A stretch of DNA of 64,000 nucleotides from IMG/VR virus record IMGVR_UViG_3300042275_000805, one strand, 5' to 3'. Source of the stretch: an uncultured virus (IMG/VR IMGVR_UViG_3300042275_000805). Lineage: Duplodnaviria > Heunggongvirae > Uroviricota > Caudoviricetes. The translations under genes and the position numbers were made by a program. The notes beneath the pieces were generated by a model. It saw only the letters and a program-made list of their open reading frames with translations. It was not told the DNA's origin and ran no database searches. Position 1 is the first letter of the stretch; every line of letters starts with the position of its first letter. Shown in pieces: positions 25,258 through 46,200 of the stretch.

Positions 25258-25287
25258 GGATCAATCTCCTTGTTCAATAGGTAAGTG

Positions 25288-30198: not shown

Positions 30199-30284
30199 CG
30201 CAGGGACACGATCATTTCATGCAGGGACATTTGTGGATAAGTCCCTGCAAAGTCCCCGCACGATGTCCCTGCATTGTCCCTGTG
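30199..30284. repeat. Six-copy GTCCCTGCA-like array (2 inverted + 4 direct)
   Basis: GCAGGGAC at ~30200 and ~30221; GTCCCTGCA, GTCCCCGCA, GTCCCTGCA and GTCCCTGTG at 30241-30284. Confidence 0.75.
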
Positions 30285-30374
30285 CAATATACTCGATTCA
30301 ATGAATTGGGGGGGGCAGTGAGGGCAGACATCAATGGTCGCATGCTTGCGTGCCAATGAGGGGAATTGGCCAAA

Positions 30375-30880: not shown

Positions 30881-31166
30881 ATAGCGAAGTTCAATTGTTG
30901 CTTTTCACCATATGGTGTGTCAAGTCAGTTATTCGTCTTGGAATAGTTGTGCGTCTCAGATAAACTAATGTATATCTTGCCGGGGGGGTGTTCTCCAGCA
31001 AAATGACCGCGCACCGGTCTGTTTCTCACGAAAAATTAATGCTTTACTAGATTAGCCTAATCAACTGTTAGCGGCACAGAGGCCGTGATATCACCAGTTG
31101 GTGCGTGAGTTACCAAGCGACAGAACATGGTCTGTGCAAACAGTAGCAACTTAAACGAGGAGAAGC

Positions 31167-32117
31167 ATGGCAGTGAAGGTTTCGACCAACAACCATCAAG
31201 CCGACCGCTGGAAAATGCGTGGTGGTCCAGCAGGGTTTCACCTATTCAATCGTACCACCGGTCTGAACGTCCTCCTCGACGAAGTGGCCGTGCCACCCTC
31301 GCTTCACGCTCGAGTACCTCGGCAGGTTTCCATCGCTCTCACCAACCGCTGCGATCTTGCGTGTGCTCACTGCTATGCACCGAAGTCCCGAGCCGAACTT
31401 CGGTTTGATGACATCACACGATGGTTGGCCGAACTTGATTCGAATGGCACCCTCGGAGTTGGCTTTGGTGGTGGCGAGCCGACGCTTTACCCGGAGTTTG
31501 AGAGGCTCTGTCAACATATAGCACGCGAGACCCAGCTCTCCATGTCGTTTACAACCCACGGCCACCACATTGATGATGTTCTTGCGGAGAGTATTCGCGG
31601 CAGCGTCAACTTTGTCCGCGTAAGCATGGATGGCGTCGGTGCCACCTACGAATCTATTCGGCGTCGCTCCTTCGATGAGTTACTCGCTCGGTTTCAGCAC
31701 GTACGATCCATCTCCAACTTCGGTATCAATGTAGTGATCAATGAGCTTACATTGCCCAATCTAGATGACGTCGCCATTGTCGCATCGGATGTTGGCGCCT
31801 GTGAGTTGTTGCTGCTCCCACAGGTTCCGGTACGCGGGGTTCCAGCGATTTCCCAGGATACTTTGCAAGGCCTACGCCGTTGGGTTGACTCCTACAGGGG
31901 CTCACTGAAGCTCTGCATTAATGAGATGAGTGCCGAAGGCTTTCCGACGTGCGATCCATTGAGTCAGGAACACGGCTTACTCGCATATGCCCACATTGAC
32001 GCGATGGGTGTTCTCAAGCCCACTTCGTATTCGGACACCGGGGTGAAACTCGGTGATCGAGGAATGCTGCAGACGCTCGAGCAACTTACTCATGACCTTA
32101 AGGAGAATGAATCATGA
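31167..32117 (+). CDS. Radical SAM protein
   Basis: LTNRCDLACAHCY CxxxCxxC, FGGGEPT, FTTHG, RVSMDG; GAGGAG SD. Confidence 0.93.
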   Translation: MAVKVSTNNHQADRWKMRGGPAGFHLFNRTTGLNVLLDEVAVPPSLHARVPRQVSIALTNRCDLACAHCYAPKSRAELRFDDITRWLAELDSNGTLGVGFGGGEPTLYPEFERLCQHIARETQLSMSFTTHGHHIDDVLAESIRGSVNFVRVSMDGVGATYESIRRRSFDELLARFQHVRSISNFGINVVINELTLPNLDDVAIVASDVGACELLLLPQVPVRGVPAISQDTLQGLRRWVDSYRGSLKLCINEMSAEGFPTCDPLSQEHGLLAYAHIDAMGVLKPTSYSDTGVKLGDRGMLQTLEQLTHDLKENES

Positions 32118-32518
32118 AGATTTGGTACCAGCACAGCTCCGAGCACTCCGCGAATCTCGTGATGATCGGGCATTTCGAGGACGCAGCCAAGGCGAAGAAA
32201 GCCGAAATGATTATCGATACGCTAACGAAACACGTCTGTAAGGAGGAATTAGATGGCAACCTGATCGTGGGGCAGCCGTCGGAGCGGTACGGCAGCGAGA
32301 TGCTCGATTTTCTTTTGAAGCTTAACGTCTCATCAATCGGTCCACGTGAGTTAGAGCAGTTCCTCTACGACGTGAGAGTGGAGGTAAAGGAAAGCAAGAT
32401 CGTCGTTACGACCGATGAGATCGAAATCTCTGCCTTCCTCAAAGTCATGCTAGATCATGGAGCACGCATTGAGGTCTACTCAGCACACAACCATCCCAAC
32501 AGCGAGTACGGAAGGTGA
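32114..32518 (+). CDS. Conserved hypothetical protein (DUF6375-like)
   Basis: MKIW...SEHSANLVMIGHF N-terminus and GARIEVYSAH C-terminus, recalled as DUF6375; ATGA overlap with the rSAM gene. Confidence 0.65.
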   Translation: MKIWYQHSSEHSANLVMIGHFEDAAKAKKAEMIIDTLTKHVCKEELDGNLIVGQPSERYGSEMLDFLLKLNVSSIGPRELEQFLYDVRVEVKESKIVVTTDEIEISAFLKVMLDHGARIEVYSAHNHPNSEYGR

Positions 32519-32540
32519 TGCCGATGAGAATGGAGCCGCA

Positions 32541-35500
32541 ATGCCAGCGCTGAATTGGGACATCTTCACCAACCTACCAGGAAGCGCGGAAAAGAACTTC
32601 GAGTTGCTCTGCCGAGGAATCGTACGCCAGAACTTTGGCAGCTACGGTACCTTCCGCGCTCTCGCGAACCAGCCGGGCGTCGAGTTCCATCTCATACTCG
32701 ACAAGCACTGCAATACACTCGGTGATCCGGAACGTTGGTGGGGCTGGCAGTGTAAGTGGTACAACCTCGCAGCGAACCGCAAGCTGGGTTCGACCAGGCG
32801 AAATAAAATCGAGGATGGACTCCGAAAGACGGAACAGCACTTACCTGACCTCACGGATTGGGTACTCTGGACACGCCGCACGCTAACCAAGGACGACCAA
32901 GACTGGTTCAACGGCCTTTCCTCCAAAATGACACTCCATCTATGGACAGGTGACGAGGTCGACAACCTTCTCACGGGGCAAGCTACCGTCCTTCGTGGCA
33001 CTTTCTTTGGCGAGTTGGTACTCACGCCCGACATGCTGCGTGAGTTTCATGAACAGGCTGTCGCTCCGATTCAAGCGCGATGGCAGCCAAACGTGCATCA
33101 TGTTGGTGAAGCCGAGCGTGATTTGCGTCGTATGCTTGGAGAAGTAGAAGTATGGAAGGTGCTTAGCGAACTGGCAATAGAATTGCGTGCGATCGCCAGT
33201 GCGGTCGATTCGTCGCCAGCCGTGCCTGCTCTACTTGAACCGCTCGTGATAGGAGTCGTCGACACGGCCCTGCAATCGGCAGTCACCCTCGACAGGATCG
33301 CGGCAAGCATCGGCGTCGGTGACCTGGACCTTCTTCGCGATGAGTTCACCGCCTATTCACGTACGCTACCTTCTGAGGTGAAGACTGCCCCTCGAAGACT
33401 CAGGGCACGCAGGCAGCGCGCGGGGCTTTACGCGACAAACGCGGTGGCGGGTTGTCACGATGCGATACAGTTGATTGGCGAGGTTGAGGCGGGGTTTTCT
33501 TCGCGATTGGTCGCAGTCCTTGCGCCCGCAGGATGCGGAAAGACGCACCTTGCGGCGCAACTCACGGCAGGAACAACGGAGCGTCCCCACGGGGTGCTTT
33601 TGCACGGAAGGGACTTGCACGCGCGTCACACCCTCGACGACCTAGCTCGTCGTGTGTCGATCGCGGCGCAACCTGTGGCGAGCATGGAGGCGCTCCTTGC
33701 TGCAGTGAATGCTGCTGGCCAGCGTGCTCAGAAACGTCTTCCTATTTTCATCGACGGCCTGAATGAGTCGGAAGACCCTAGGACGTGGAAGCCGTTACTC
33801 GCTGCGCTAGAGACCACCCTCGCAAAGTATCCGTACGTGCTGCTGGTCTGCACGCTTCGCCCCGAATTTTCGGATGAAGCACTCCCCGAGGTTACTCGCC
33901 GCATGGAGATCAACGACTACGGTGAGGAGACTGACGAGGCAATTCGCAAGCATTTCCACTACTGGAAGATCAATGCCACCGACGCATCCTTCCCCAGCTT
34001 TCTAAGGCATCCTCTTACGCTACGCCTCTTCTGCGAAGTGACGAACCCGACCCGGCAGCAGGTCGTCGGCATGGGGGCGACGCCGGGATCTTTGAGCGAG
34101 CTTTTTGAGCGTTTCTTGAAACAGGTGGGAGAACGGATCGTTGAACTGGCTCCACGCACGCACAAGTTTAATGCGCAGGACGTAAACACGGCGATCACAG
34201 CCATTGCAAACAAGCTGTGGGAGTCAAAAGCCCGTCATATAGAGCTCAGTGAACTTCGAAATATGCTCGCAGATGCGCATCGTCCTTGGGACCAGAGTCT
34301 TGTGCGTGCTTTAGAGCATGAGGGCGTGTTGCTCCGCATGCCTTCGAACGGTACCCACACCTATGTGCCCGTATACGACCTGCTCGGTGGGCACATCATA
34401 GCCAACGCACTATTGGCAAAGCATGGTCAAGATAGCTTTGAGGCATGGATCAAGGATTCTTCCACAACAACATTGCTTGCTGGCAGCAGTGACGTTCGGC
34501 ACCCGCTTGCCGATGATATTCTCCACTCGTTGGTGGGGCAGGTCCCTCGTCGCTCCTACGCGAATCAGGTCTGGCAACTGGTGGACGAGCCGCTGCGTGG
34601 TCGTGCGCTGCGGATGTCGGCGTACCACGATCCAGCTTACCTTGATGTGGTGACGGTCGACGCGCTGCTAGATCTTGTTCGGGCTGGAGACTCAGAGATA
34701 CTATTCCGCTTTTGGCAAATACGTGGTACTCATGGCCATCCGCTGAACGCTGAGGGCTTGGATCGGGCACTGCGTGACATGACGGTTTCGGAACGCGACC
34801 TTTGTTGGACGGAATGGATTCGCAGGAACAAAGACGACTTGTTTTCGAACCGTCGAAACGTGATCGGCGATCTTGAGCGTTTAGAGCGGCGATGGCGAGA
34901 CGAGAATGTTCGCGGGGGTGAGGGTGAACAACTACGCGCTCGCTGGGTCATGTGGACACTCACGAGCACGATTCGTCGGCTTCGTGATCAAGCAACGCGC
35001 ACGCTCTACTGGTTCGGACGCGTCGATCCCGAAGGGTTTTTCACGCTGACCATCGATTCACTGCCAGTGAACGACGCCTACGTGAGCGAGCGGATGCTCG
35101 CGGCCGCATACGGCGTGGTGATGACCTATCAGCAAGTAGATGCTGGATTCGCAGATTCTCTGGGGCGGTTTCTCGAACAACTCGCGTCGGCGCTCGTGGG
35201 GCATTCGGCGACAGCGCCGACGCATCACTACCTCATGCGGCTCTATGTTCGCGGTATCGTCAACTTTGCCGCGAAGTTCTATCCGGCATCACTGCCTACC
35301 TCGCTGAAAGGTGCATGGATGTTCGCCGCACCTGCACCAGTGCTGCCCCTCCCCGACGGTGATATAGATGCTGACGAGGCTGGGCGAACACTGCATATGG
35401 ACTTTGAGAATTACACACTGGGAAGACTGATCGACGGTCGCAGAAATTACGACATGAACCATGCGGGGTATAAGGCTGCCGTGGCTCATGTGCGAGGCGT

Positions 35501-36668
35501 TGTGTGGGCGCTTGGATGGCGAAGCGAGATCTTCAGGACGTTGGACATAAGCATCTCAGAGGATGTTCATCGCAGAGGGCGTGGAGATCAACCGAACGTA
35601 GAACGTTATGGGAAGAAGTACGGCTGGATTGGGTTCTACACGTACGCTGGTCTACTCGAGGATCGGGGCCAGTTTCCTCGCGAAAACAACGAGTTCTCTG
35701 ATGTGGACATTGATCCATCGTTCCCTGAAAAGCCACCCGCAGATGGATCTGCGTCAGTTCCAGTGACTTGGCTGTCACCGACTGTGGAGAGTCATCAGAC
35801 TTGGATGCTGGAGAGCACCACGTCGGTACCACGCAACCTCCTTCGTCGAGAGCAGATCGGTGACAGTTGTGGCCCGTGGGTGGGCGTCCACGGCTTCGTT
35901 AAGACTGAGGACCGGGTTCTCGGGCGTGAAGCATGGGCATTCATCTCTGCATTTGTGACGTCAAAGGAGAGCGTTTCGCGACTAGTAGCCGCGTTGAACG
36001 CAGGTGAACAGCCATGGTTGGCTCGTGAAGTTCCGAGCGATTACTACATGTTCGCTGGCGAGATGCCGTGGCATCCAAACTTTGGTTCTCTGGCGCTCTC
36101 CGAGGAAGCATACAGTGAGAGCGTTGGGAGCGAAGCTGACGCTGTCGAGGTGGAGGTGGTCGCGCACGGCTACGCATGGGAGAGCTACCACAGCGAAATG
36201 AATCGCGCGGGAAGTACGATAGTACCGTCCCAGCCTTTTTCACATCGATTCGATCTCCGTAGCTCTGCGCAATCCTTCGACCAGTTCCTTGCGGACGGTA
36301 GCAAAGCTACGGTAACACTTAGCGGTGTCGATGGCCTCGAAGGACAGTTGCTCTATATCCGAGAAGATCTACTCAAGCAGTATGTAGATGACCGAGCAAT
36401 TATCTGGTATGCATTCGGCGAGAGGGAGTTGCGACCTTATCCACCATCACCACCACAATGGCTCGTGGACGCTCAGCAACAAGAGTTGAACTCTTGGCGC
36501 GAAGTACTCACTGAAGCAGACCTCTTGCAGAATGAGAAACCGTCTCGGAAGAAGAAAGAAGTCAAGCAGCAGCGAGCTAAAAAGAGCACGGCGAAAAAGC
36601 GATCTGCCAAGGTGGCTACGAAGCAAGTAACTACCAAGCGGGTGAAGCGAGCCAAGAGGAAGCCGTGA
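32541..36668 (+). CDS. Avs (AVAST)-like STAND NTPase with N-terminal Mrr/PD-(D/E)xK-type nuclease
   Basis: NFE...NQPGVE...GWQCKWY N-terminus like Avs4; Walker A APAGCGKT, Walker B IFIDGLNE; HPLNA, NDAYVSER, ERYGKKYGWI and DIDPS sensor-region motifs; GGAG SD; 1,375 aa. Confidence 0.8.
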   Translation: MPALNWDIFTNLPGSAEKNFELLCRGIVRQNFGSYGTFRALANQPGVEFHLILDKHCNTLGDPERWWGWQCKWYNLAANRKLGSTRRNKIEDGLRKTEQHLPDLTDWVLWTRRTLTKDDQDWFNGLSSKMTLHLWTGDEVDNLLTGQATVLRGTFFGELVLTPDMLREFHEQAVAPIQARWQPNVHHVGEAERDLRRMLGEVEVWKVLSELAIELRAIASAVDSSPAVPALLEPLVIGVVDTALQSAVTLDRIAASIGVGDLDLLRDEFTAYSRTLPSEVKTAPRRLRARRQRAGLYATNAVAGCHDAIQLIGEVEAGFSSRLVAVLAPAGCGKTHLAAQLTAGTTERPHGVLLHGRDLHARHTLDDLARRVSIAAQPVASMEALLAAVNAAGQRAQKRLPIFIDGLNESEDPRTWKPLLAALETTLAKYPYVLLVCTLRPEFSDEALPEVTRRMEINDYGEETDEAIRKHFHYWKINATDASFPSFLRHPLTLRLFCEVTNPTRQQVVGMGATPGSLSELFERFLKQVGERIVELAPRTHKFNAQDVNTAITAIANKLWESKARHIELSELRNMLADAHRPWDQSLVRALEHEGVLLRMPSNGTHTYVPVYDLLGGHIIANALLAKHGQDSFEAWIKDSSTTTLLAGSSDVRHPLADDILHSLVGQVPRRSYANQVWQLVDEPLRGRALRMSAYHDPAYLDVVTVDALLDLVRAGDSEILFRFWQIRGTHGHPLNAEGLDRALRDMTVSERDLCWTEWIRRNKDDLFSNRRNVIGDLERLERRWRDENVRGGEGEQLRARWVMWTLTSTIRRLRDQATRTLYWFGRVDPEGFFTLTIDSLPVNDAYVSERMLAAAYGVVMTYQQVDAGFADSLGRFLEQLASALVGHSATAPTHHYLMRLYVRGIVNFAAKFYPASLPTSLKGAWMFAAPAPVLPLPDGDIDADEAGRTLHMDFENYTLGRLIDGRRNYDMNHAGYKAAVAHVRGVVWALGWRSEIFRTLDISISEDVHRRGRGDQPNVERYGKKYGWIGFYTYAGLLEDRGQFPRENNEFSDVDIDPSFPEKPPADGSASVPVTWLSPTVESHQTWMLESTTSVPRNLLRREQIGDSCGPWVGVHGFVKTEDRVLGREAWAFISAFVTSKESVSRLVAALNAGEQPWLAREVPSDYYMFAGEMPWHPNFGSLALSEEAYSESVGSEADAVEVEVVAHGYAWESYHSEMNRAGSTIVPSQPFSHRFDLRSSAQSFDQFLADGSKATVTLSGVDGLEGQLLYIREDLLKQYVDDRAIIWYAFGERELRPYPPSPPQWLVDAQQQELNSWREVLTEADLLQNEKPSRKKKEVKQQRAKKSTAKKRSAKVATKQVTTKRVKRAKRKP

Positions 36669-36709
36669 CACTATAGCCGGAAGGCGGCTGTGATCTCATT
36701 GGCACTATT

Positions 36710-37198
36710 TTAAGCTTTCTTTTCTACAGCCGGCTCTGGACTTAGAAACAGTCCAGCTATACCCAGGCAGATAATGCTCCAGAATGCGATTTTCTGGCCG
36801 AACTTTCGTCGAACTGCTTTCTTGATTAGATTTTCAAATATCTGATTGATTTCCGCTTGGGTTTTGTTCTGTAGAACAACAGCCTGAATGTGCTTTAATT
36901 CGCTAGGCAATTGTTCGGGAGGCATATTCCAAAGGATTATGATGATTTCTTTTTCGTTGTGTTCAGCAACTGCGATTTCGCGGGTTACTGCTCTTGACTC
37001 ACACGCTTCTTTACTGGCCAAGAGCCAAAGAGCATCGCATTCTTTGAGTTCTTGGTGCAATCGGCATTGCCAGTCTTCTCCAGGATCAATGCTGTGCTCG
37101 TCTAGGAACACCGAAAGTTTTGCTTTTTCACAGTACTTCTTCAAACCTGTGGCTATTTGTGAATCATGATGGCTGTGGCTGATAAAAATGTCTGACAT
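36710..37198 (-). CDS. TIR-domain protein with C-terminal TM helix
   Basis: IFISHSHHD, VFLDEHSIDPGEDW, VTREI (catalytic Glu position); IAFWSIICLGIAGLFL. Confidence 0.85.
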   Translation of the reverse strand: MSDIFISHSHHDSQIATGLKKYCEKAKLSVFLDEHSIDPGEDWQCRLHQELKECDALWLLASKEACESRAVTREIAVAEHNEKEIIIILWNMPPEQLPSELKHIQAVVLQNKTQAEINQIFENLIKKAVRRKFGQKIAFWSIICLGIAGLFLSPEPAVEKKA

Positions 37199-37438
37199 GT
37201 GAGGTTTCCGGAAATTGCGAAGATAAACAGTGAGCATCAAATGAAGGTGCTCAATTTCAGTTGGATCGTAATGACTCCATGATACGGTTTTTAGCCATGC
37301 AGTTCACTTTGTTGTGAGGGCATTTGTTGGATGGCGACTGTAAATGATGTCTCACAGCTGTACGCGAGACTTAGAGTGAATTCTATCCCGGAAGATTCTT
37401 GATTAGGGGTAAGTAATTTGGTTTTATCACGTTTGTAG

Positions 37439-38557
37439 TTAAATCTGACGAGTCTTCAACACGTAGTATCCCGGCCTCGGCTTTCGGATGAATGACACCA
37501 TTCCTCGGTTGGTCAGTCCAGTCAATTCACGTTTGGCCTGTTTGTCGCCAATGGCAAATTGATCCTCCACCATTTTGCGGGTCAATTGCATTCCGTTGCG
37601 AAGTTGATCCAGAATCCAGAGTTGGCGTTCGGTCAATGGTGAATGTGCGTCACCCATCGAAGTGCATTGGGTTGATGTAGTGTTTGATGACAGGACTGGT
37701 GCATGTGATACTGGTTCTGCGGGGCCTGTTTTTTCATCATACCGCTCAATCCTCAGCCAATCGGCCAGGTGGTAGCCTTTACCTTTGTTGGCGATGACGT
37801 CGTTTCGACTGACGGTTAAGCGTGATTCTTCAAGTAAGATTTGGGCGATGCGTGTTCGCAAGGTGTGGACGCATGAATTGATTGCACCGTCTGAGAGTTG
37901 ACCTGATGGATCAATGGCCTTGGCCAATCTGGGAGCACTGAGGCGGGGGCGTTTGCCATTGTTTTGTGGTTTGCTCAGAGCGTGGAGGATGAGCCAACCA
38001 TTTCCGGGGGCGGGGTGTTGGGATTCGAGAATGGTTTCACCGGCCAGTTCGATGTGATTGGGAAAGAACGCCAGCACACCACCTTCAAATGGTTTGGGCG
38101 GATCGCCAAGGCAGGTGCCTTTGGGTAGTGATATGCGGTGCATGTTCAGTACGTTGCGAATGGCTTGTGGCAGACTTTTGCCGGTGGTGCCGTCACCGAA
38201 GGGTTTGGAGATAAAATCCATCGCGCCGTTGCCCATGAGATCCATCACCATATTCAGACCTTTTTCGTGATGACCTGTCATGACGATGACGGGTGTGATG
38301 CCACGCCCGTTGATTTGCTGAATCTGTTCGATGAGCAGTTTGCCATACTCGATGTTGGCAAAGCCACGTCCGGTACGAGCGGGGATTTCCAGATCGGCAA
38401 GCACGTACTGGTAAGTGTTTTGCTCGATCAAGTCGCGAGCCTGCTGCTGGCTTTGTGCCCAGTCGTGTTCGTGGCCAAGTAGTTGCAGCACATCCATGAT
38501 CTGTTCCTGGATTTGAAGATCATCTTCAACAACCAGTGCTTTAACTTTCGACTTCAT
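37439..38557 (-). CDS. Response regulator: REC + OmpR-like wHTH + second C-terminal wHTH
   Basis: LVVEDD, LADLEIP (phospho-Asp), MTG, FISKPF; NKGKGYHL wing; LTERQLWILDQL...AKRELTGL. Confidence 0.88.
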   Translation of the reverse strand: MKSKVKALVVEDDLQIQEQIMDVLQLLGHEHDWAQSQQQARDLIEQNTYQYVLADLEIPARTGRGFANIEYGKLLIEQIQQINGRGITPVIVMTGHHEKGLNMVMDLMGNGAMDFISKPFGDGTTGKSLPQAIRNVLNMHRISLPKGTCLGDPPKPFEGGVLAFFPNHIELAGETILESQHPAPGNGWLILHALSKPQNNGKRPRLSAPRLAKAIDPSGQLSDGAINSCVHTLRTRIAQILLEESRLTVSRNDVIANKGKGYHLADWLRIERYDEKTGPAEPVSHAPVLSSNTTSTQCTSMGDAHSPLTERQLWILDQLRNGMQLTRKMVEDQFAIGDKQAKRELTGLTNRGMVSFIRKPRPGYYVLKTRQI

Positions 38558-39702
38558 GGGGTTGTCTCCGGTGTTGGTGATTGCTTGCGTTTGAATGTGA
38601 TCAAGGCGGTGGTGCCAGCATCCTCACTACTGGCAAAGGCCAACGTGCCAGCATGGGCTTCGATATAGCGACGGGCGATGGGCACCCCAAACCCCGTGCT
38701 TTTGCGCTTGGCTTTGTTGCGACGTCGCGGCATGCCTGAATCCAGAATAGTGAGATGTTCGGAGGCCATGCCCATGCCGTTGTCATGGATGCTTATCTGT
38801 ACTTCATCATTACGTTGGTCGGCAGTGACCAGGATTTCGCCGGAACGTAAATGCTCGTGTTGTTCCATGAAAGATTCATAGGCGTTCTTGACGAGATTGG
38901 CGACAGCCAGAATGATCAGGTGCTTGGACATGCGCAGACGCAAGCCGTCGGGAACGTCCTGTCGTAAGGTGATGTTGCGTGGATCGTAGCCCAGTTCCTC
39001 GATGTTCTTGGCAGCCATCTCGCACGCAGCAGTCAGCACTTCGCCTACATCCTCAGCCTGCTGTTGTGGCGGTATTGGTTCGGTGTAGCGTTCCATGTCA
39101 CTGACACATCGCTCAATGAATGCCAAACTTTCCAGCACACGGGATGTCTTGCGTCGGGCAGCGTCGATATCAACGCTGCCATCCAAGGCGTTGTTTAATC
39201 CACGTGCAGCGGGTTGCAGATGTGTCAGAACACTACGCAGATCGTGGGCCATCGAACCAGCCAACTGGTTGAATCGCATTTCGCTGATGGCCTTGACATC
39301 ATCAATGGCATCGGGACCATACTTGTTTCGTAATCGTGTTAACCGACTGGCCAACTGCCGATCCACCGTTTCACGCTTGCGATCAAGCCGATGCGTTTGC
39401 CTGCGTTTGGTATCGCTTTGTTCAGCAGCACGTTTGACGAAGCCATTGGGGTCATCCGTCAGGTCTGACACAAGTTTGGAATACAGATCGTCATCCACCA
39501 GATACAAACCATTGGCAATGACCTTGCGGACTTCCCATTTGGGATCGTTGGCAAAGTGTTCAAGCAACTGTCGGATTGAGGTGGTGTATTCAACCACCTG
39601 CCCGGTCTGCACAGCATCCATCAAAGATTGAGCCATAGCCAGACGATCGCGCCAGTGGGGTGATTGACTTAATTGTGCAAGTATGTCATCCCAACGATCC
39701 AT
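38554..39702 (-). CDS. Soluble histidine kinase with N-terminal HEAT-like repeats
   Basis: DPKWEVRK and DPNGFVKRAA HEAT-like motifs; H-box AHDLRS, N-box NLVKNA, DNGMG, TGFG; no TM segment. Confidence 0.88.
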   Translation of the reverse strand: MDRWDDILAQLSQSPHWRDRLAMAQSLMDAVQTGQVVEYTTSIRQLLEHFANDPKWEVRKVIANGLYLVDDDLYSKLVSDLTDDPNGFVKRAAEQSDTKRRQTHRLDRKRETVDRQLASRLTRLRNKYGPDAIDDVKAISEMRFNQLAGSMAHDLRSVLTHLQPAARGLNNALDGSVDIDAARRKTSRVLESLAFIERCVSDMERYTEPIPPQQQAEDVGEVLTAACEMAAKNIEELGYDPRNITLRQDVPDGLRLRMSKHLIILAVANLVKNAYESFMEQHEHLRSGEILVTADQRNDEVQISIHDNGMGMASEHLTILDSGMPRRRNKAKRKSTGFGVPIARRYIEAHAGTLAFASSEDAGTTALITFKRKQSPTPETTP

Positions 39703-41588
39703 CAGCGAGCATACCTTTCCCGTCGTTGAGCGAATGCCTCCTCACCACCTTCCAGAAGGTTGATGATTTCGGGTTTGCAGGTGTCTACGTCACCTTGGTT
39801 GAGCAGGCGGGATTGGTTGCCATCAGAGGTCAGAACGAACACATGTGCCGCATCACCCAGCACCGGGATGTTGGGATTGTGCGTGATCAGAATCAACTGG
39901 CGATTGGCTTTGACGCGGTGAATACCCTCGACGACCGTGTCGTAGATGAAGCGATTGTCCAGGTTGTCTTCCGGTTGATCAATGAGCAGTGGGTTTTCAC
40001 TGTCCAGCAACAAGATCGGCAAAATGGTGGTGCATTTCTGTCCGGTGGACAGGGATAGTGAATCCTTCCAATGATCACCATCCTTGAGTTCGATCTTGGG
40101 TAGATCAATCAAATCGACGATCTCAATCTTCAGAAGCAGTTCCGTGTCATTGAGTGCGTTGATGACTTTTTCAGCCTGGTTGCCGTTGAGTGTGGTTTGC
40201 TTCTGAAGCGAGTGGATGTCCAGTTGCTGGACTAGAGAGACCAATTCCGAAGGTGCAACCACCTTGGCAATCCGTTTGGCAACCTGATTGTGATTGATAC
40301 CGGCATGTTTCAGAACATCGGCCAGAAGGCAGATGTATTGTTCTCGGTTTTCATCTTGAGCGATCCGCACACGCACTGGTGATGAAACCGCATCCGTGAT
40401 CTGCTGGGCAATCGATAGACGCAGATTGAACCGTTGATCACGTAATTCCGTCAGTTGATCGATGTGAGTCTGGCGTTCTGATTGAAGCGTTTGTAGCCGA
40501 TCCTTGAGTTCCTTGTGTTGACGCTGCTTGTTGAGCAGATCGTTGCGTTTACGTTCCCACTGTGCGCGTTCGGTTGCCTGTCCCTGAGCTTCTTTGTGTC
40601 GCGTCATCAAGTCGCGGAAGGCCAACTCCTGTTGACTGTGCTTGCCTTGTAATTCCTGAGTTTGTACAGCCAGTTCTGATTGCGAACGATGGAGCAGGGC
40701 GACGGCTTGTTGAAATAGCTTGTCCAACTCGTTGCCTGTTTGATGCATTTGCGTGCGGATGGCCTGAATGATGCTGCCGTTGGGGCCGTTTATCACATCT
40801 TCAGCAAACAGGCTGTCAACACCAGTGGTAAATCGGCCATTGGCATCACATAGCCATTCAGTGTATTCATTGATCTGCTGCTTGGCTTGCCCGATCGCAT
40901 GAGTTTCCCGGTCGCGCAATGCCTTATGCGTCTGGGCTTGGTTCATCTGGTCCGCATTCTCGCCACCGACATGAGCCAGTTTGTCGATCCGATCTTCAAC
41001 GCTCTTGAGCGTGGTCAATTCATCAGCCAGTTTGGCCAGCGTGATCTGGGCAGGCACCATCGTCTTGGCATTGGCCTGTAACTTGGCATGGACTTCAGCA
41101 ATCGCCGTATCCAGACTTGCGATCTCATCAGCCACAAACGCATCGATCAATGCCAACTGGGATTCCGGGCTGTCAGCAATGTTCTCCACCTCGTTCTGGC
41201 TGAACAGATCCGCACTGAAGATACCGCCGGAATTGATGGTGATATCGGTGGGTTGCCCATCTATCGTGAGTACGATGGGATTGCCGGTGGCTGTGCGATC
41301 CACGATGTAGTCTAAGCCGTCCTTGGTTTGGATCGTAAGACGAATACGTCCGTCCCCCAGATTCTGCCGCACCAACGATTCCACACGACGTCGGCAAACT
41401 TGCCCGACATCACCCGGCTGAAACTCGTTGAGCACATAGCGGACGAATTCCAGAATCGTGGTCTTGCCTGTCCCGCGATGGCCGATCAGACAATTCAATC
41501 CATCCACAAACTGGATGTCCAGGCTATCCAGAAACCCTCCCGTCACCGACAAGGATTTGATTAGGTGACAACGTTTTGATTCAAACAT
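39702..41588 (-). CDS. SMC/ABC-type ATPase with long coiled coil (TrlF/Ppl-ATPase-like, no PHP domain)
   Basis: GHRGTGKT, FSQNE Q-loop, LSTGQK signature, LLIDQPEDNLD, ITHNPN, LEGGEEAF. Confidence 0.88.
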   Translation of the reverse strand: MFESKRCHLIKSLSVTGGFLDSLDIQFVDGLNCLIGHRGTGKTTILEFVRYVLNEFQPGDVGQVCRRRVESLVRQNLGDGRIRLTIQTKDGLDYIVDRTATGNPIVLTIDGQPTDITINSGGIFSADLFSQNEVENIADSPESQLALIDAFVADEIASLDTAIAEVHAKLQANAKTMVPAQITLAKLADELTTLKSVEDRIDKLAHVGGENADQMNQAQTHKALRDRETHAIGQAKQQINEYTEWLCDANGRFTTGVDSLFAEDVINGPNGSIIQAIRTQMHQTGNELDKLFQQAVALLHRSQSELAVQTQELQGKHSQQELAFRDLMTRHKEAQGQATERAQWERKRNDLLNKQRQHKELKDRLQTLQSERQTHIDQLTELRDQRFNLRLSIAQQITDAVSSPVRVRIAQDENREQYICLLADVLKHAGINHNQVAKRIAKVVAPSELVSLVQQLDIHSLQKQTTLNGNQAEKVINALNDTELLLKIEIVDLIDLPKIELKDGDHWKDSLSLSTGQKCTTILPILLLDSENPLLIDQPEDNLDNRFIYDTVVEGIHRVKANRQLILITHNPNIPVLGDAAHVFVLTSDGNQSRLLNQGDVDTCKPEIINLLEGGEEAFAQRRERYAR

Positions 41589-42168
41589 ATCAATATGCCT
41601 TTAACAACAGGCGCAAACCAACAGCCTATGAACATCATTGCGATGCTCATTTACATGTTTGGCGAGATCAGTGGGGAATATGAACCCGAAGGTGATTCGG
41701 GAAAGCTTCCGGGGGCGGGGGCTTCCGGGGTTATGTCAAATGTGTGTTTAGATGCTCATACATATGCATCACTTGTCGCTCCTCGGAAATATAAAACAGT
41801 CGATCCATTCATGCGATCCATCCATTTGGCAGTTACTCAGACCACCGTTTAATGGAATACCCATGCATTGTGTTAGGATTAAATTTGGATGTCAAATCGG
41901 GTATAAGCAGGTGAATTTCAGGTTAATTCGAAGGGTAAAAAATGCGAAAAACACTGGACTTTATAGGATAATGCGTATTGGGGGCGTGGCGATTGTTGTT
42001 GGATGTGCCGAATAAAGTCAAAATATTTTTTGATTAGGCTGGTAATTCTGTATATGTTCGGCAATCAATACCAAAAATACCAATGGCCAATTGCAGGAAT
42101 ATTTGATATGGTTCGCGTCTGTTTTGAATTAACCGATTTCATATCACCATTATCAGGAGAGTTATTCC

Positions 42169-42609
42169 ATGGCAAAATCCGATGCCGCATCCGAACTGAT
42201 CCAACTTGTGCAGAAGCTGCAAGACGAACGTACTGGTCATGTCCAGGCCATCGAGGCGATTGACCTGACCTTCAAGCAATTGGGTATTGAGGTCCAAACG
42301 TCTGAACCAACAGTTAAGCCACGTCGCGGTCGTCCAGCAGGTACTGGCAAGAAGGCCAAGGCAGCCAAGGCCACCCCAAGGAAGACCAGTAAACGCACCC
42401 GCAAGACGTTTGCGGTGTCAGGCGATGAGTCCGTCTTGGTATTCGTCAAAGCCAATCCGGATTGCACGACTGCACAGGTCAATGAACACTGGACCAAAGA
42501 AGGCCGTAGCGGCAAAGCCGACAACGCCTTGGGCAAACTGGTCAAGGAAGGCAAGATCACCCGCAAGAACATCAAAGGCCAACGCGGTAGCACGTACAAG
42601 GCCAAGTGA
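42169..42609 (+). CDS. Basic nucleoid-type DNA-binding protein (coiled coil + AT-hook + wHTH)
   Basis: AGGAGAG SD; N-terminal helix, KPRRGRP, Lys/Ala-rich linker, C-terminal winged helix. Confidence 0.75.
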   Translation: MAKSDAASELIQLVQKLQDERTGHVQAIEAIDLTFKQLGIEVQTSEPTVKPRRGRPAGTGKKAKAAKATPRKTSKRTRKTFAVSGDESVLVFVKANPDCTTAQVNEHWTKEGRSGKADNALGKLVKEGKITRKNIKGQRGSTYKAK

Positions 42610-42879
42610 GTAGACTTCTGCCATTAAGTGATCAATGCCAGCCCCACAGCGAAAAAACTGCATCGTGAATGGTTGACGTGTTGGCTAATCCAACATGTGG
42701 CTGCCTGACGGATCTTTCAAAAAGTGTGAGACATTGTGGTTTGGCAAGGTTATTTTTGATTTCGTCGTTCATCATGGCCGGTGATTAAACCAGTATATGA
42801 CAATTGTATAAAACCGTTCTGGGTGACTGGGGTAGCCTGCAAGGTGTTTCGGTTCTTGAGACTGCAACAAAAAAAAGCA

Positions 42880-42907
42880 TTGACAGTATGTTGTTGAAAC
42901 GGATAAT
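42880..42907 (+). promoter_or_regulatory. Candidate sigma70 promoter for the giant gene
   Basis: TTGACA-16 nt-GATAAT preceded by an A tract (UP-like). Confidence 0.5.
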
Positions 42908-43288
42908 GCGAATAGATGTCTAGGGGGCTGACTGATGAGTAGACGTTCTAAAAACTTCCGGGTGTTTGGAGCTTCCGCAGGGGCATTTCAAGTAGGGGGG
43001 GAATCAAGTGTACATTCGTTTGGTAGAAGCAACGGAAAAACGCATGGTCACATGCGTATCAAGTTGACGGATTGATTGTTTTGTTGTGCAACTCTTTACA
43101 CACTGTAGATATGACATTGTGTACTTTGCAGCGATGAGGGGGCTGTCATTACGTAACTCGTGTTGGGGTGGGTTAAGTCTTAAATATTCAACGTGCTTTT
43201 GAGGCACGTTAAGCAAGATGCAGCGATTGTATCTTGTGTGTATGTCTATTGTCCATTTGTCCACAGTCTATTTTCGTAGGGGTCCTTT

Positions 43289-46200
43289 ATGCGATTATCA
43301 CGTCGTGCCTTGGGTTGGTTGAATCTTCGATATCGCTCCGTTATTTCTCATATGCGTGTTGGTGAGCCATGTATGGGGGCATGGTGGAGTGATCAGTGTG
43401 CTAAAGTACAAGCTATTTTGCATCGTCTGAAAAAGAAGACAGTCAAAACGGCACGTCGGCTCTTTGAGCATCACGCCCAGTCATTTAGTCTGGAACAGAT
43501 GGAACCGCGCGTGTTGCTCAATGGTGATCCCAGCTTTCTGGCAGCCGATACCTACGCATGGGGATCGGGATACAGCGGGCAGGTGATGGTGGTTGACCTG
43601 GAAAACGATCAGATGTCCGAAATCATCAGGCAGCCTGTTTACCGGGATACCAATTACCGCTTGCTCAACAATAACGAGGATGGCACATTTGGTGATGTCG
43701 ATCTTTTACCTACCGCAGGTGGATATGGCCAGTTGATCTTTGAAGATCTTAATGACGACGGGTATCTGGACATGATCAGTGTCGGCTCGTCGAATGACCG
43801 CGTGGGCATCAGTTACAACGACCAACTTGGTGGTTTTGATGAGATGAGTTTTTATGCGACAGGTGATGCACCCTATGGTGTTGGTATTGCCGATTTTGAT
43901 AACGACGGCATCAAAGACCTGATGGTCACGCATAGTGAGTGGGTGGAAGGTACGGATTGGTATGGCGGTGTACGTTTCCTTAAGGGGCTAGAAGATGGGA
44001 CGTTTGCTTCATATACAAATGCCTACCCTCTTGATATGTCCAGCAGCTATTACTCGGATGGTGCCTATGTAATCCATGCTGGTGATCTAGATGCCGATGG
44101 TAATGCGGACTTGTTGGTTGCCGACTATTACGGGTATGGCGTCAGTCTGCTCAAAGGAGCCGGTGATGGTACGTTTTCTGAAAATCAAACATTAGGTATT
44201 TACACGGAAAATCCAGATGGATTAAGTAATCAGCGCGTTTTTGAAGATATCAACTTGGATGGTCATCGTGACTTGATGGTTGCACAGTACTATAGCAATC
44301 AGGTTACCTTTGCTTTTGGTCATGGTGATGGGACGTTTAGTGTACAGACTTATTCCTTGACGACTGCGGAATATGGGACGTCTTTTGAAATGATTGGTGC
44401 GTCATTAGGCGATGCCAACAATGATGGTTATCTGGATATTGTCTTTTCGATCTATGATTACAATGACTATTCTCAACATATCATGATTGCTACGGGTAAT
44501 GGCGATGGCACATTCAATCAAGCTAATGAAATCGATCCCGGGTCTTCGATCAGCACCAATTACACGCCAATTCTGGCAGATGTGAACGATGATGGGTGGG
44601 ATGATGTTATCTTTGCAGGATATTACGACCAAGGCAATGTCCATGTAGTCTTGAACGAAGGTGTTTCGATTAATCATGGTGGGCCTTACGCACTAAGCGA
44701 AGGTGAAAGCATCGTGCTACACGGGACTGCCGACGATCCTGCTGTGCTTGATTTGATGGAATGGGATTTTGATTATGACGGGGTCACATTCGATGTGGAT
44801 GCGATTGGAGCGAATCCCACTTTTACCGCCGGGCCCGATGGAACATATGTCATTGCCGTCCGCGCGCCGGATGGGGAAGGTGGCTACAATGTTTTACAGA
44901 CTTTGGTGAACGTCACAGAGTTACCACCGGTTGTTGAAGTCAGTGGGGTTTCGCAGATTGATCAGGGAGTTGAATTTTCTCTGGATATCAATGCCTATGA
45001 TCCAGGTGGTGATTTAATCACTTCATTGACCATTGATTGGGGGGATGGGCAAGTTGAAACTGTTGATCCAACTGTAACCAGTGCACAGCATGTTTATACC
45101 TTTGCAGACAGTTATCAGATCAGTGTGGCTGCGCAAACAGAGGATGGTTTGTCGAGTACAGAGTTATCCTCGCTGATTGTGGAACAGATTGTTGATCCTG
45201 TTGCGATCATGGGAGCTGTTCTTTCGATGGATGAAGGGCAAACCGTGGTTCTCACGTCGGATATTGGGAACAATACGCCCACAGAAACAATTTATAATTG
45301 GATCGTCACACGTGATGGTATGCCGATTGTACCGGCACTGGTAACAGATGAATCAACATTCACTTTTGCTCCTGATGATAATGGTGCTTATGACATTACG
45401 TTGGAAGTATTGATGGATGGGATGGGGGCTCGATATTCGAGTCAGATTCAAGTCGATAACGTTGCGCCTGAACTATCTTCGGTCCAGACAAATGGTGTGA
45501 TTGACGAAGGCTCACAAGCCAATGTGACCGGTTTTGTTGCCGATGCTGGATTGGCAGATGTTCTGACACTGACGATTGACTGGGGGGATGGCGAAGTATT
45601 GGACTACGAACTACCTGTTGGTAGTACTTCATTTGATTTTTCGCATGTATATACAGATGACAATCCCACCGGCACTGCCTCTGATACATATGATGTGACA
45701 GTTTCATTGGCCGATGATGATGGTGGCGTTGCCCTGCCATTGACTGTGACTCAGGATGTGTTGAATGTGGCCCCACTGGTTGACGTTCAAGTGACTTCCC
45801 TGAACCCTGAGGCTGGTTCGCAGGTTGATTTTGTCACGACCATTACGGATCCCGGTGCTGATACGTTTGTCTATTCATGGACGCTTTGGTTTGAAGGCGA
45901 TCAAATCGCGACAGGTGATTCATCTGATTTTTCGTTTGTACCAGATAGCAATGGCGTATATGACATTCATTTGACTGTTACGGATGATGATACTGGTAGT
46001 GTAAATCAAACCTATCAGCTTGATGTGGCGCCTGGTGCTCAGATATATGATTTGCCTTCATCCGTTGCCGAAGGCCAGGTGTTGGACTTGACCGGGGCAT
46101 CCATCGCAGATGATGTTAGTGGCGATTTTGTTTATCGTTGGGAATTGCATTCTCAGAATTCTGGTCAGTTGTTGGCTTCGTCAGATACGACATCGTTTTC

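Follow-up and report, generated by a model that had tools for sequence, protein, structure and literature searches.

Three adjacent minus-strand genes in a 64,000-nucleotide stretch of viral DNA (the window) probably encode one signalling machine, in which an ATPase would act as the sensor, a histidine kinase as the relay and a response regulator as the transcriptional output in phage-host conflict; we put the probability of this reading only a little above even (about 0.55). A DNA-clamp-type ATPase seems to serve here as the input of a two-component switch. The region (37439-41588) consists of three minus-strand ORFs at 39702-41588, 38554-39702 and 37439-38557, and the TGATG and ATGA overlaps through which the initial annotation had joined the genes were both read in the sequence. 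The features discussed below, all on the minus strand, are as follows.

41589 to 42168, minus: AT-rich region upstream of the ATPase gene (GC 0.41), presumed promoter region
39702 to 41588, minus: SMC/Rad50-like ABC ATPase, 628 aa, PHP-less relative of TrlF/Ppl (NCBIfam, AF2, Foldseek)
41457 to 41483, minus: Walker A, residues 36-44, GHRGTGKTT (G36, R38, G39, G41 and K42 invariant, T43 and T44 nearly so)
40113 to 41132, minus: coiled-coil arm, with helices ascending over 153-249 and descending over 271-401, plus the helical insert 405-490 (AF2 secondary structure)
40191 to 40460, minus: predicted docking patch for the kinase HEAT domain, ATPase residues 377-466 (complex-prediction interface)
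39957 to 39989, minus: Walker B and D-loop, LLIDQPEDNLD, residues 534-544 (L534 and D537-D544 invariant)
39700 to 39704, minus: TGATG overlap of ATPase stop and kinase start, one base common to both (...GCT CGC TGATG GAT...)
38554 to 39702, minus: cytoplasmic histidine kinase, 382 aa, with HEAT domain (~1-100), linker helix, DHp with His153, and HATPase_c (Pfam)
39403 to 39702, minus: HEAT-repeat input domain, residues 1-100 (Pfam HEAT_2; DPKWEVR and DxNxxVRxAA motifs in the consensus)
39244 to 39246, minus: codon of His153, presumed phospho-accepting histidine (invariant column)
38554 to 38557, minus: ATGA overlap of kinase stop and regulator start, 4 nt (...CCC ATGA AG...)
37439 to 38557, minus: response regulator, 372 aa (Pfam Response_reg at 8-122; AF2 pLDDT 88.6)
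37742 to 38086, minus: OmpR/PhoB-type winged helix, residues 158-272 (AF2 topology)
37457 to 37630, minus: second, C-terminal winged helix, residues 310-367 (AF2: three helices and a hairpin)
36710 to 37240, minus: TIR-domain gene, 176 aa, hydrophobic C-terminal tail (Pfam TIR_2, 2.9e-19)

A PHP-less relative of Ppl and TrlF

The ATPase matched the NCBIfam model TrlF_fam_ATP (E 6.4e-82) over model positions 295-943 of 944, and its N-terminal ~294 positions are therefore missing from the protein. It also matched Spaf_1101 (NF045781, E 7.3e-44), Ppl_antiphage (E 1.2e-34) and the PADLOC Ppl model (E 4.2e-22), with scores under the curated cut-offs of TrlF (NF045780), Spaf_1101 and Ppl alike. Since the translation contains the signature motifs LLIDQPEDNLD, ITHNPNIP and LLEGGEEAF and a Pfam search for a PHP domain gave no match, its earlier description as a Ppl/TrlF-like ATPase without PHP holds. 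The homology to Ppl, TrlF and Spaf_1101 extends along the whole ATPase, including the head, the coiled coil, the insert and the DQPEDNLD/THNPN/LEGG motifs, but these proteins carry an N-terminal PHP phosphoesterase domain that is absent here (model positions 1-294 unmatched), and they have no partner genes, whereas the cassette ATPase is accompanied by a kinase and a regulator. PHP-fused relatives in viral contigs (872-982 aa; PF02811 in five of the six scanned) likewise stand alone, while a distant PHP-less variant (loci L119 and L120) is followed by a short kinase and then by a REC-TCAD9 protein.

Residues of the Walker A, Q-loop, signature, Walker B and H-loop motifs were invariant among 56 sequences. 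The AF2 model (pLDDT 88.8) showed a head and a coiled coil, and its Foldseek matches included Smc, MukB, Rad50, LmuB, JetC, RecF and RecN. The ATPase shares its fold, an ABC head with an antiparallel coiled coil, with the Rad50-Mre11, SMC-kleisin and Lamassu LmuB-LmuA/C systems (Foldseek E 1.8e-13 to 1e-8), although identity to these proteins is only 10-14% and its coiled coil is short, with arms of ~100 residues. Furthermore, the partner in those systems is a nuclease or a kleisin, whereas that in the cassette is a signalling kinase.

The kinase, its predicted docking site and the regulator

Pfam assigned HATPase_c to kinase residues 263-372 (2.8e-15) and HEAT_2 to residues 7-96 (5.5e-6; 27.0 bits against a cut-off of 27.7), and the two domains were found in 56 and 45, respectively, of 56 aligned orthologues, in which H153, N273, D307, G337 and G339 were invariant. 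Because no 19-residue window of hydrophobicity above 1.34 occurred in the ATPase, the kinase or the regulator, all three proteins look cytoplasmic, in agreement with the initial view of a cytoplasmic kinase with HEAT repeats as its only input; HEAT is indeed its sole additional domain. As judged from sequence, the soluble kinase lacks any sensor domain apart from its HEAT repeats, the regulator is of the OmpR type, and all catalytic residues are intact.

Complex prediction of the ATPase with kinase residues 1-135, a check proposed in the initial annotation and here run with controls, favored binding, with ipSAE values of 0.75, 0.73 and 0.75 against 0.00 for the best control; the complex was modeled 1:1 with the HEAT domain as the only part of the kinase. 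At least 96% of contacts were common to the runs, and the partner pLDDT was at least 83. Of 157 solved complexes, 116 reached the same mark, as did 2 of 215 mismatched pairs; since the alignments were our own, these counts are only a rough guide. The predicted patch on the ATPase comprises the base of the descending coiled-coil helix and the insert, and includes the invariant Q411 and the nearly invariant D384 and F387. On the kinase side, the predicted contacts (residues 18, 55-57, 60, 64, 85-92 and 95) were better conserved than the rest of residues 1-135 (0.56 vs 0.39; permutation p ~0.013), and the contact residues of the ATPase showed no extra conservation over their surroundings (0.49 vs 0.45 or 0.51; p 0.21 and 0.62). 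Docking of the kinase HEAT domain on the coiled-coil base and helical insert of the ATPase is supported by this prediction. Mre11 sits on the coiled-coil base of Rad50, a place equivalent to the predicted HEAT docking site, and a Rad50/Mre11-RBD entry (5da9) was among the Foldseek matches of the ATPase. An ATPase-kinase fusion was apparent only in locus L029; as a single G within a homopolymer distinguishes this locus from the related L024, the fusion may be an assembly error.

The regulator has the invariant residues D12, D55, T94 and K118, and REC was the sole Pfam domain matched in the window protein. Its top Foldseek matches were the full-length OmpR-family proteins KdpE, VanR, MtrA and RpaA (E ~1e-10), and the matches, which also included PrrA and PhoP, spanned ~270 columns. 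The AF2 model contains two winged helices, and the second was matched in many orthologues by the Pfam families HTH_11, HTH_DeoR, HTH_24 and MarR_2, so the regulator does have the two DNA-binding domains initially ascribed to it. Shorter regulators of Alphaproteobacteria and Acidobacteriota have the OmpR/PhoB-type winged helix in common with it (hhalign probability 100, columns 1-274) and are devoid of the second one, which lies outside the cassette core.

Conservation and genomic setting of the trio

Among 185,579 species genomes, we confirmed 590 relatives and kept 78 loci for analysis. A kinase homologue lay directly downstream of the ATPase gene in 77 of the 78 loci, representing at least eight phyla; a regulator homologue was detected by tblastn in 63 of the 78, and the third gene encoded a receiver domain in 66 of the 67 scanned. 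The kinase gene started within 49 nt of the ATPase stop, or overlapped it, at 53 of 56 loci with refined starts, and the kinase-regulator junction fell between -25 and +20 nt in 57 of 67 loci, 37 of which had a 4-nt NTGA overlap. Because the three-gene arrangement recurs across phyla, it is far beyond chance. The comparison of gene content and order indicates that the trio is widespread, and that its order and translational coupling are conserved across phyla; the initial annotation had named a lack of conservation as grounds for dropping its proposal, and these counts leave the proposal standing. When 548 neighboring ORFs were clustered, no family extended beyond 10 loci and there was hence no fourth conserved gene; the one same-strand neighbor family at a distance of ~0 consisted of the divergent regulators themselves.

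In IMG/VR, we found 69 viral loci, including 39 with a close ATPase (at least 33% identity in the best segment; four of the 39 are partial or stop at a contig end). These 39 loci contained the kinase in 35 cases, the regulator in 32 and a serine integrase within the locus in 15. Genes next to the trio, which indicate a mobile and conflict-related setting, encoded HsdR, ResIII/RE_endonuc, N6_Mtase, SacI, NaeI, MmeI, BrxL, WYL-WCX, TIR_2, SAVED, patatin, cNMP-TIR, PLD and NERD-kinase proteins, serine and tyrosine recombinases, and CI-like S24 repressors. From its gene neighborhoods, the cassette is evidently carried by temperate phages and defence islands. In the window, the trio adjoins a siphovirus-like prophage; an IMG/VR provirus record covers 24001-36668 with 100% identity and, by its record length, would span ~6043-36668.

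The TIR gene lies 198 bp downstream of the regulator gene on the same strand, and the KD19 maximum of its product is 1.72 at residues 151-169. This adjacency is kept in the contig of run X16, in which 34 of 677 aligned letters differ, and non-orthologous TIR genes adjoin the trio in L040, L049, L070 and L073; the TIR gene is a possible cargo or target gene. The earlier statement that the ATPase has no nuclease partner stands for the conserved core but does not extend to the neighborhood, where variable effector-like genes (TIR, SAVED, patatin, restriction enzymes) are often adjacent.

Proposed mechanism and competing explanations

We propose that the ATPase is the input, and that contact with a ligand would lead to ATP-driven engagement of the heads and a change at the coiled-coil base. 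Rad50, Lamassu and OLD-type ATPases suggest by analogy that the ligand would most likely be a DNA structure, for instance free ends or intermediates of foreign replication. The change at the base would toggle the bound kinase between kinase and phosphatase states, phosphate would pass from His153 to Asp55 of the regulator, and the winged helices would then turn genes on or off, so that a transcriptional output would in effect replace the nuclease effector of Ppl/TrlF. The most likely role would be gene control upon infection or DNA damage in phage-host or phage-phage conflict, for example induction of neighboring toxic or immune genes (here the TIR gene) or a prophage response to superinfection.

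The functional version that we favor makes a stronger claim and is held only tentatively: the cassette may be a complete, inducible anti-phage defence, with the ATPase as the detector of infection and the regulator as the switch that turns on an adjacent toxic or immune gene, here the membrane-tailed TIR protein and perhaps also a radical-SAM/DUF6375/NACHT-like operon. One relative of the ATPase, Ppl, is listed in NCBIfam as an anti-phage protein, and the PADLOC Ppl model matches the ATPase as well. In addition, a same-strand effector-like gene directly follows the regulator gene in the window (TIR), L040 (TIR, with a 4-nt overlap), L059 and L069 (SAVED), L078 (patatin), L046 (Nmad3), L032 (SacI and a methylase) and L013 (cyclase). 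SAVED genes are usually part of their own CBASS operons. No effector family is conserved beside the trio, which is odd for a defence system, and in about half of the loci the next gene downstream is convergent instead. Orthology among the TIR genes is lacking (E 1.2 and 4e-5), so they may merely share the island with the trio, and many lytic phages may be too fast for a response by transcription. A precedent for such control is provided by the defence system Ambrosia, whose kinase and REC-wHTH regulator are thought, in the preprint passages that describe them, to control restriction-like enzymes (bioRxiv 10.1101/2025.09.30.679545). Defence-island neighbors are no proof of a defence role, and a position in the lysogeny region fits self-regulation by the phage equally well. 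On that account, the trio would be a control device of temperate phages, an SOS-independent sensor of DNA damage or superinfection that feeds the lysis-lysogeny decision from within the lysogeny region, for example by regulating sigma-like or early genes or the integrase. The viral contigs L094 and L108-L112 have the trio placed between a serine integrase gene and early exonuclease/Sak4/helicase genes. The trio is convergent with the integrase gene in L020, L024, L035, L082 and the window, where it adjoins a sigma-like gene divergent from the early operon. A gap of 18 nt separates the end of a CI-like HTH-S24 repressor gene from the ATPase start in L031 and L035. We nevertheless regard this account as unlikely, because at many genomic loci phage genes are absent over 6 kb and the flanks carry restriction or BREX-like genes, the prophage marker proteins of the window were matched by tblastn in only 14 of the 78 loci (Pfam finds further recombinases), and, in the window, the trio and the integrase gene have 7 kb of defence-like genes between them. 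Lysogeny regions are the usual home of phage-borne defence cargo too.

Complex prediction shows contact, not direction, and HEAT repeats are generic scaffolds; the ATPase might accordingly be the regulated output or a structural partner, such as a DNA-binding clamp with the kinase-HEAT protein in control of its loading, and the regulator might only autoregulate the operon. Such a reversal is improbable, since the kinase has no other input domain and would be left with nothing to sense, the phosphotransfer residues of kinase and regulator are all invariant, and the ATPase of the sister forms is fused to an effector (PHP), not to a sensor. The source annotations 'DNA repair ATPase RecN' and 'SbcCD ATPase subunit', as well as the nearest folds (SMC, Rad50, RecN and RecF), point to a housekeeping regulator of DNA repair or chromosome maintenance. 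That assignment is very unlikely indeed, given a RecN score of 23 bits against an NCBIfam cut-off of 408, scores for Rad50 and SMC also far under their cut-offs, a patchy distribution (590 confirmed stretches in 185,579 species genomes), variable neighbors, adjacent recombinases and presence in viral contigs.

The proposed sensor-relay-output machine has counterparts in KaiC-SasA-RpaA and BceAB-BceS, in which the input to a two-component kinase is the state of an ATPase and not a ligand: a kinase that lacks a ligand-binding sensor uses a protein-binding domain at its N terminus to dock on the ATPase, and its phosphorylation target is an OmpR-type regulator. As these systems are generally described, the cassette would follow the same logic, and RpaA was among the structural matches of its regulator. 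Their ATPases (the RecA-like KaiC and a membrane ABC transporter) and their docking domains are unrelated to those of the cassette, and, unlike the cassette, both are chromosomal housekeeping systems. Ambrosia resembles the cassette, as far as the available description goes, in having a histidine kinase and a REC-wHTH regulator in a phage-defence cluster, for which a transcriptional response to infection was proposed (bioRxiv 10.1101/2025.09.30.679545); it differs in having an XRE regulator, a methyltransferase and an HNH nuclease and no ABC ATPase. Full-text literature searches, and passages of individual papers matched by search terms, yielded no published description of an ATPase-kinase-regulator cassette, as the initial annotation had anticipated.

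Upstream of the ATPase gene, two sigma-70-like matches were found on the minus strand (41895-41867 and 42021-41992), and the count of such sites in 41589-42168 was not in excess over shuffled sequences. The sole candidate for a shared DNA motif, CCTAATCAA, had four matches against 0.31 expected and was found post hoc; the loci of L001 and L002, the closest relatives, lack it, and two of the four sites are altered or replaced in the contig of run X16. No operator array common to the trio and replication genes was found; the only array seen is a local TGCAGGGACA one after the integrase gene in the window.

Gene layout and conservation of the cassette

Three minus-strand genes, encoding an SMC-like ABC ATPase, a histidine kinase and a response regulator, lie end to end in the window.

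39702-41588, minus strand, ATPase gene (ORF, 628 aa)
38554-39702, minus strand, kinase gene (ORF, 382 aa)
37439-38557, minus strand, regulator gene (ORF, 372 aa)

The ATPase stop codon and the kinase start codon have one base in common (TGATG), and the kinase stop and the regulator start overlap by four bases (ATGA), so the junctions described in the initial annotation proved exact when the sequence was read. No hydrophobic segment was found in any of the three proteins. Consensus scans for promoters and terminators around the trio gave no excess over shuffled sequences, and a general repeat search of window 36600-43400 returned nothing notable.

The initial annotation had made conservation of the trio a test of its reading, and the trio is conserved. 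A scan using one genome per species gave 590 confirmed stretches, from which 78 loci were kept; judged by record title, they belong to Planctomycetota, Verrucomicrobiota, Lentisphaerota, Myxococcota, Alphaproteobacteria, Acidobacteriota, Gemmatimonadota and Chloroflexota. A kinase homologue lies immediately 3' of the ATPase gene in 77 of the 78, the exception (L043) being a 3.1-kb contig on which a partial ATPase gene adjoins a phage cement gene. Regulator homologues were detected by tblastn in 63 of the 78 loci, and of the 67 complete third genes 66 have a Pfam receiver domain; in the remaining locus, L027, truncated ATPase and kinase matches are followed by EF-Tu. At 37 of 67 loci, the kinase and regulator genes meet in a 4-nt NTGA overlap, and at 57 of 67 their junction falls between -25 and +20 nt. 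Clustering of 548 flanking ORFs revealed no conserved fourth gene. Close relatives exist, with proteins (P0004-P0007) that are 93-96% identical. With these 590 stretches in species-representative genomes and close copies on 39 viral contigs, the trio is common enough to matter.

Apparent gene fusions were also inspected. In L029, a single in-frame 1011-aa ORF (3461-6496) joins ATPase and kinase and was considered as a Rosetta stone, but it was not counted because it rests on a single base in a G-run, which has one G fewer than in the relative L024; this ORF reflects either a genuine fusion or a misassembly of the MAG. An ostensible kinase-regulator fusion in L056 and a long ORF in L037 were rejected as ORF-calling artefacts in high-GC DNA. 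Among the best 120 of 382 scored ATPase relatives (345-1099 aa), none carries a kinase domain.

The three genes thus form a real, conserved cassette, for which full-text literature searches found no published description; a classification of ABC ATPases that may bear on novelty lay outside the scope of these searches (Krishnan et al. 2020, NAR 48:10045). The term 'TrlF' returned unrelated matches only. In Kaur et al. (2020, eLife e52696), the terms 'ABC ATPase' and 'SMC' are absent, and the histidine-kinase passages are unrelated to such a trio.

The three proteins and their relatives

The ATPase matched three NCBIfam models, TrlF_fam_ATP (E = 6.4e-82), Spaf1101_AAA_ATP (7.3e-44) and Ppl_antiphage (1.2e-34), in each case below the curated cut-off. 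Membership of the TrlF family of AAA-like ATPases (NF045780) takes a score of at least 350 bits across all 944 model positions, with the N-terminal PHP (phosphoesterase) region among them; the ATPase scores 276.7 bits over positions 295-943 only. Ppl (NF042955; PADLOC Ppl) is defined by at least 1000 bits, a PHP domain fused to the ATPase and a single-gene system; here the score is 119.5 bits, the match starts at position 273 of 882, PHP is lacking, and the protein has kinase and regulator partners. Ppl is nevertheless the top PADLOC match (4.2e-22). Pfam found no PHP domain and assigned only the generic AAA_23, AAA_15, SMC_N and AAA_21, and the database names are limited to 'AAA family ATPase', 'RecN', 'SbcCD ATPase subunit' and 'hypothetical'. 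Because PHP (PF02811) is present in five of six scanned viral-contig relatives of 872-982 aa and missing here, the ATPase is, on sequence grounds, a PHP-less member of the TrlF/Ppl lineage, in agreement with the initial annotation. The lineage hallmarks, namely D537-D544 (the DQPEDNLD Walker B/D-loop), T569-L577 (with the THNPN H-loop) and L612-G615 (LEGG), are all invariant.

An alignment of 56 ATPase orthologues (mean column identity 51%) also showed invariance of Walker A (G36-K42), Q131, the LSTGQ signature (513-517), the Walker B/D-loop D537-D544 and the H-loop T569-N573. In the AlphaFold model (pLDDT 88.8, pTM 0.74), an antiparallel coiled coil of helices 153-249 and 271-401 splits the ABC head, and a helical insert follows at 405-490. 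Foldseek matched this model to Smc, MukB, Rad50, Lamassu LmuB, JetC, RecF and RecN at 10-14% identity. The protein therefore has what characterizes an SMC/Rad50-like ABC ATPase, that is, invariant G36-K42, Q131, L513-Q517, D537-E540 (with the catalytic Glu) and H570, and a coiled coil (153-401) between the two halves of the head.

The Pfam matches of the kinase are HATPase_c at 263-372 (2.8e-15) and HEAT_2 at 7-96 (5.5e-6, slightly short of the gathering score). Among 56 kinase orthologues, HATPase_c was found in all, HEAT_2 in 45, and Pfam HisKA in only five. The features of a histidine kinase are present: a phospho-accepting His in the DHp helix and the N, G1 and G2 boxes of the GHKL domain. 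H153, N273, D307, G337 and G339 are invariant, the boxes (D307/G309/G311 and G337/G339 for G1 and G2) are invariant or nearly so, and the same holds for K55, W56, R59, D84 and V89 of the HEAT motif.

For the regulator, Pfam recognized the receiver domain only (Response_reg, 5.1e-14). The acidic pair, the phospho-accepting Asp, the Thr and the Lys of a response regulator are in place within the receiver fold, and all of 37 orthologues keep D12, D55, T94 and K118. Its AlphaFold model (pLDDT 88.6) consists of the receiver (REC), a four-strand/three-helix/hairpin domain (158-272), a disordered linker and a three-helix/hairpin domain (310-367). The top Foldseek matches in the PDB are whole OmpR-family regulators, namely KdpE, VanR, MtrA, RpaA, PrrA and PhoP. 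The OmpR/PhoB subfamily is defined here by a C-terminal winged helix (Pfam Trans_reg_C) right behind REC; full-length matches to KdpE, VanR, MtrA and RpaA span about 270 columns, Trans_reg_C was not matched at E up to 0.1, and an extra winged helix follows. This C-terminal domain matches HTH_11, HTH_DeoR, HTH_24 or MarR_2 of Pfam in many orthologues. Shorter regulators of 257-308 aa from Alphaproteobacteria, Acidobacteriota, Myxococcota and others align to residues 1-274 only (hhalign probability 100). Going by these alignments, REC and an OmpR-like winged helix make up the core regulator, and the second winged helix was added in particular clades.

The defence ATPases known of this type, such as Ppl, Lamassu, PARIS and Gabija, are coupled to nucleases or other direct effectors, the histidine kinases known so far mostly sense via ligand-binding domains, and KaiC-SasA-RpaA and BceAB-BceS offer analogies for a kinase that reads an ATPase. 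The cassette unites the worlds of defence-type ATPases and histidine-kinase signalling. With Ppl and TrlF it shares the ATPase body but neither the PHP domain nor scores above the cut-offs, and with SMC/Rad50-like ATPases it shares the fold. Lamassu pairs its SMC-like ATPase LmuB with an LmuA effector (and LmuC); matches to LmuB in PADLOC are weak (best 1.5e-7, 29 bits), and the flanking-ORF clustering found no conserved LmuA-like neighbour. In its logic, the cassette comes closest to Ambrosia, a defence cluster that combines a kinase with a REC-wHTH regulator and that the preprint describes as five genes, encoding an XRE regulator, an N6 methyltransferase, the kinase, the REC-wHTH regulator and an HNH nuclease (bioRxiv 10.1101/2025.09.30.679545). 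So described, Ambrosia differs in having no ABC ATPase, and its methyltransferase, HNH and XRE genes are all absent beside the trio in the window.

Neighbours in other genomes and a proposed signalling route

Pfam scans of the neighbourhood took in the two closest flanking ORFs per side, up to 2.5 kb away (232 of 245 selected, after third genes already scanned and clearly spurious ORFs were dropped). They found type I, III and IIS restriction and methylase genes, BrxL, WYL-WCX regulators, and also TIR_2, SAVED, patatin, cNMP-TIR, PLD, NERD-kinase, Fic and toxin-antitoxin pairs; the TIR genes adjoining the trio in different loci are not orthologous. Other neighbours are large serine recombinases, tyrosine integrases and CI-like HTH-S24 repressors. 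IMG/VR contributed 69 related loci, including 39 whose ATPase is at least 33% identical in the best segment, and within these 39 loci we found the kinase in 35, the regulator in 32, a serine integrase in 15 and a Sak4-like gene in 19. The trio lies between an integrase and early recombination/replication genes in L094 and L108-L112, and is convergent with an integrase in L020, L024, L035 and L082. In two loci, a CI/LexA-like gene (HTH_3 plus Peptidase_S24; L031:5212-5895 and L035:329-1252) stops 18 nt 5' of the ATPase gene, and the trio may be co-transcribed with this prophage repressor; in L035, the opposite flank of the trio has a convergent serine integrase.

A distant PHP-less variant was found on the IMG/VR contigs L119 and L120 (both at 9995-14123; 26-28% identity by tblastn), where a 612-aa ATPase precedes a 294-aa kinase that gave no HEAT match and, after it, a REC-TCAD9 protein, TCAD9 being a kinase-like 'ternary complex associated' domain. 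Output domains can thus vary: most copies have a winged helix, and this variant has TCAD9.

The complex of ATPase and HEAT domain, whose modelling the initial annotation had suggested as a check, was predicted from the full ATPase and kinase residues 1-135 with a 56-row alignment for each. Three runs gave ipSAE values of 0.75, 0.73 and 0.75, as against 0.00 for the best of three controls, with at least 96% of contacts in agreement and partner pLDDT of at least 83. Of 157 solved complexes, 116 attain the same score mark, as do 2 of 215 mismatched pairs; these counts are only approximate because our own alignments were used. The predicted contacts involve ATPase residues 377-391, 409-413, 442-448 and 463-466, which are the end of the descending coiled-coil helix and the insert, and kinase residues 18, 55-57, 60, 64, 85-92 and 95. 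The kinase contact residues are more conserved than the remainder of the domain (0.56 vs 0.39, p ~0.013), whereas those of the ATPase are not significantly so (0.49 vs 0.45-0.51), with Q411, D384 and F387 invariant or nearly invariant. The model supports binding of the HEAT domain to the coiled-coil base of the ATPase and leaves the direction of signalling aside.

As read from the DNA, the catalytic residues are intact, and the three genes are encoded together, translationally coupled and carried with mobile and conflict-related DNA. We propose that the kinase would dock through its HEAT domain on the coiled-coil base of the ATPase, and that the ATPase would be the sensor, since the kinase lacks any further input and since, in sister proteins, the same ATPase is joined to an effector. 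The ligand may be a DNA feature, as the analogy to Rad50, Lamassu and OLD-type ATPases suggests. Engagement of the ATPase heads would then toggle the kinase, phosphate would pass from His153 to Asp55 of the regulator, and the regulator would alter the transcription of genes that vary between elements. We assign this route as a whole, in which the ATPase senses a DNA feature, the kinase relays and the regulator changes transcription, a probability of about 0.55.

As to its purpose, a conflict-related role, such as inducible immunity or a superinfection response, is favoured over self-regulation of the phage. If the ATPase drives the kinase, the cassette would be a ready, soluble three-protein model for how a partner reads the conformational cycle of an SMC/Rad50-type protein, and also for the transcriptional response of bacteria and prophages to invading or damaged DNA. 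A further-reaching proposal, which we consider tentative and rather doubtful, is that a DNA-clamp ATPase recognizing foreign or broken DNA directly gates a kinase on its coiled-coil base, and that prophages and defence islands of many phyla in this way turn detection into a programmed change of expression and not into immediate nuclease attack; it would represent a new two-component input and a new output for immune-type SMC-like ATPases.

Surroundings of the cassette in the window

Window 1-30063 is a siphovirus-like prophage with genes for tape measure, head, portal, terminase, methylase-ParB, primase, helicase, RusA, SSB, Sak4 and exonuclease. Other features of the surroundings are as follows.

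27503-28162, sigma-factor-like gene, divergent from the early operon, at the expected repressor position
28378-30063, large serine integrase gene
36710-37240, minus strand, TIR gene (TIR_2), 176 aa, 198 bp 3' of the regulator gene
42169-42609, plus strand, 146-aa ORF, repeated AAGAAGGCCAAGGC... units that would give lysine/alanine-rich repeats
43289-64000, plus strand, giant ORF, >6904 aa, continuing past the window end

Among the structural genes of the prophage, a group II intron is inserted (Rfam RF00029 at 6049-6123, with its RT-HNH ORF at 6140-7822).

Between the integrase and the TIR gene lies a tight plus-strand operon (31167-36668) encoding a radical-SAM protein (316 aa), DUF6375 (134 aa, E = 2.1e-42) and a NACHT-like protein (1403 aa; weak NACHT/AAA_16), which appears to be a candidate defence system in its own right. 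The IMG/VR provirus record G001 (30,626 bp) is 100% identical to window 24001-36668 and covers this operon up to its stop at 36668; going by its length, the record would span approximately 6043-36668. The TIR protein ends in a hydrophobic stretch (residues 151-169, KD19 1.72) and so may be a tail-anchored membrane TIR.

On the opposite side of the trio, a 1.7-kb AT-rich spacer precedes the giant ORF, whose first 3000 residues contain 14 PKD_4 and several FG-GAP repeats and which is, by these repeats, a surface or adhesin-type protein. The 146-aa ORF had no match in Pfam or PHROG and may encode a histone-H1-like or nucleoid protein.

Contigs of sequencing run X16, for the most part with 85-99% similarity to the window, extend over the integrase, radical-SAM, NACHT-like, TIR, trio and giant genes. 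Single contigs link the TIR gene to the regulator gene and the spacer to the giant ORF, and the intergenic DNA is replaced in part. No joint skipping the island or the prophage was present in the contigs of four runs.

The motif CCTAATCAA occurs four times (0.31 expected), at 31056, 37399, 41557 and 42030, all within the 11-kb island and each oriented as the downstream gene (the radical-SAM operon, the TIR gene or the ATPase gene). A shared operator was considered and rejected, as the idea was post hoc, the motif is missing from the related loci L001 and L002, and two of the four differ or have been replaced in run X16. No operator array common to the cassette and the replication genes was found in the window. 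About 140 bp 3' of the serine integrase stop, five copies of TGCAGGGACA / TGTCCCTGCA, two direct and three inverted, are packed into 84 bp (window 30200-30283); the rest of the window shows no enrichment of this motif, and the array may bind a protein or belong to the attachment region.
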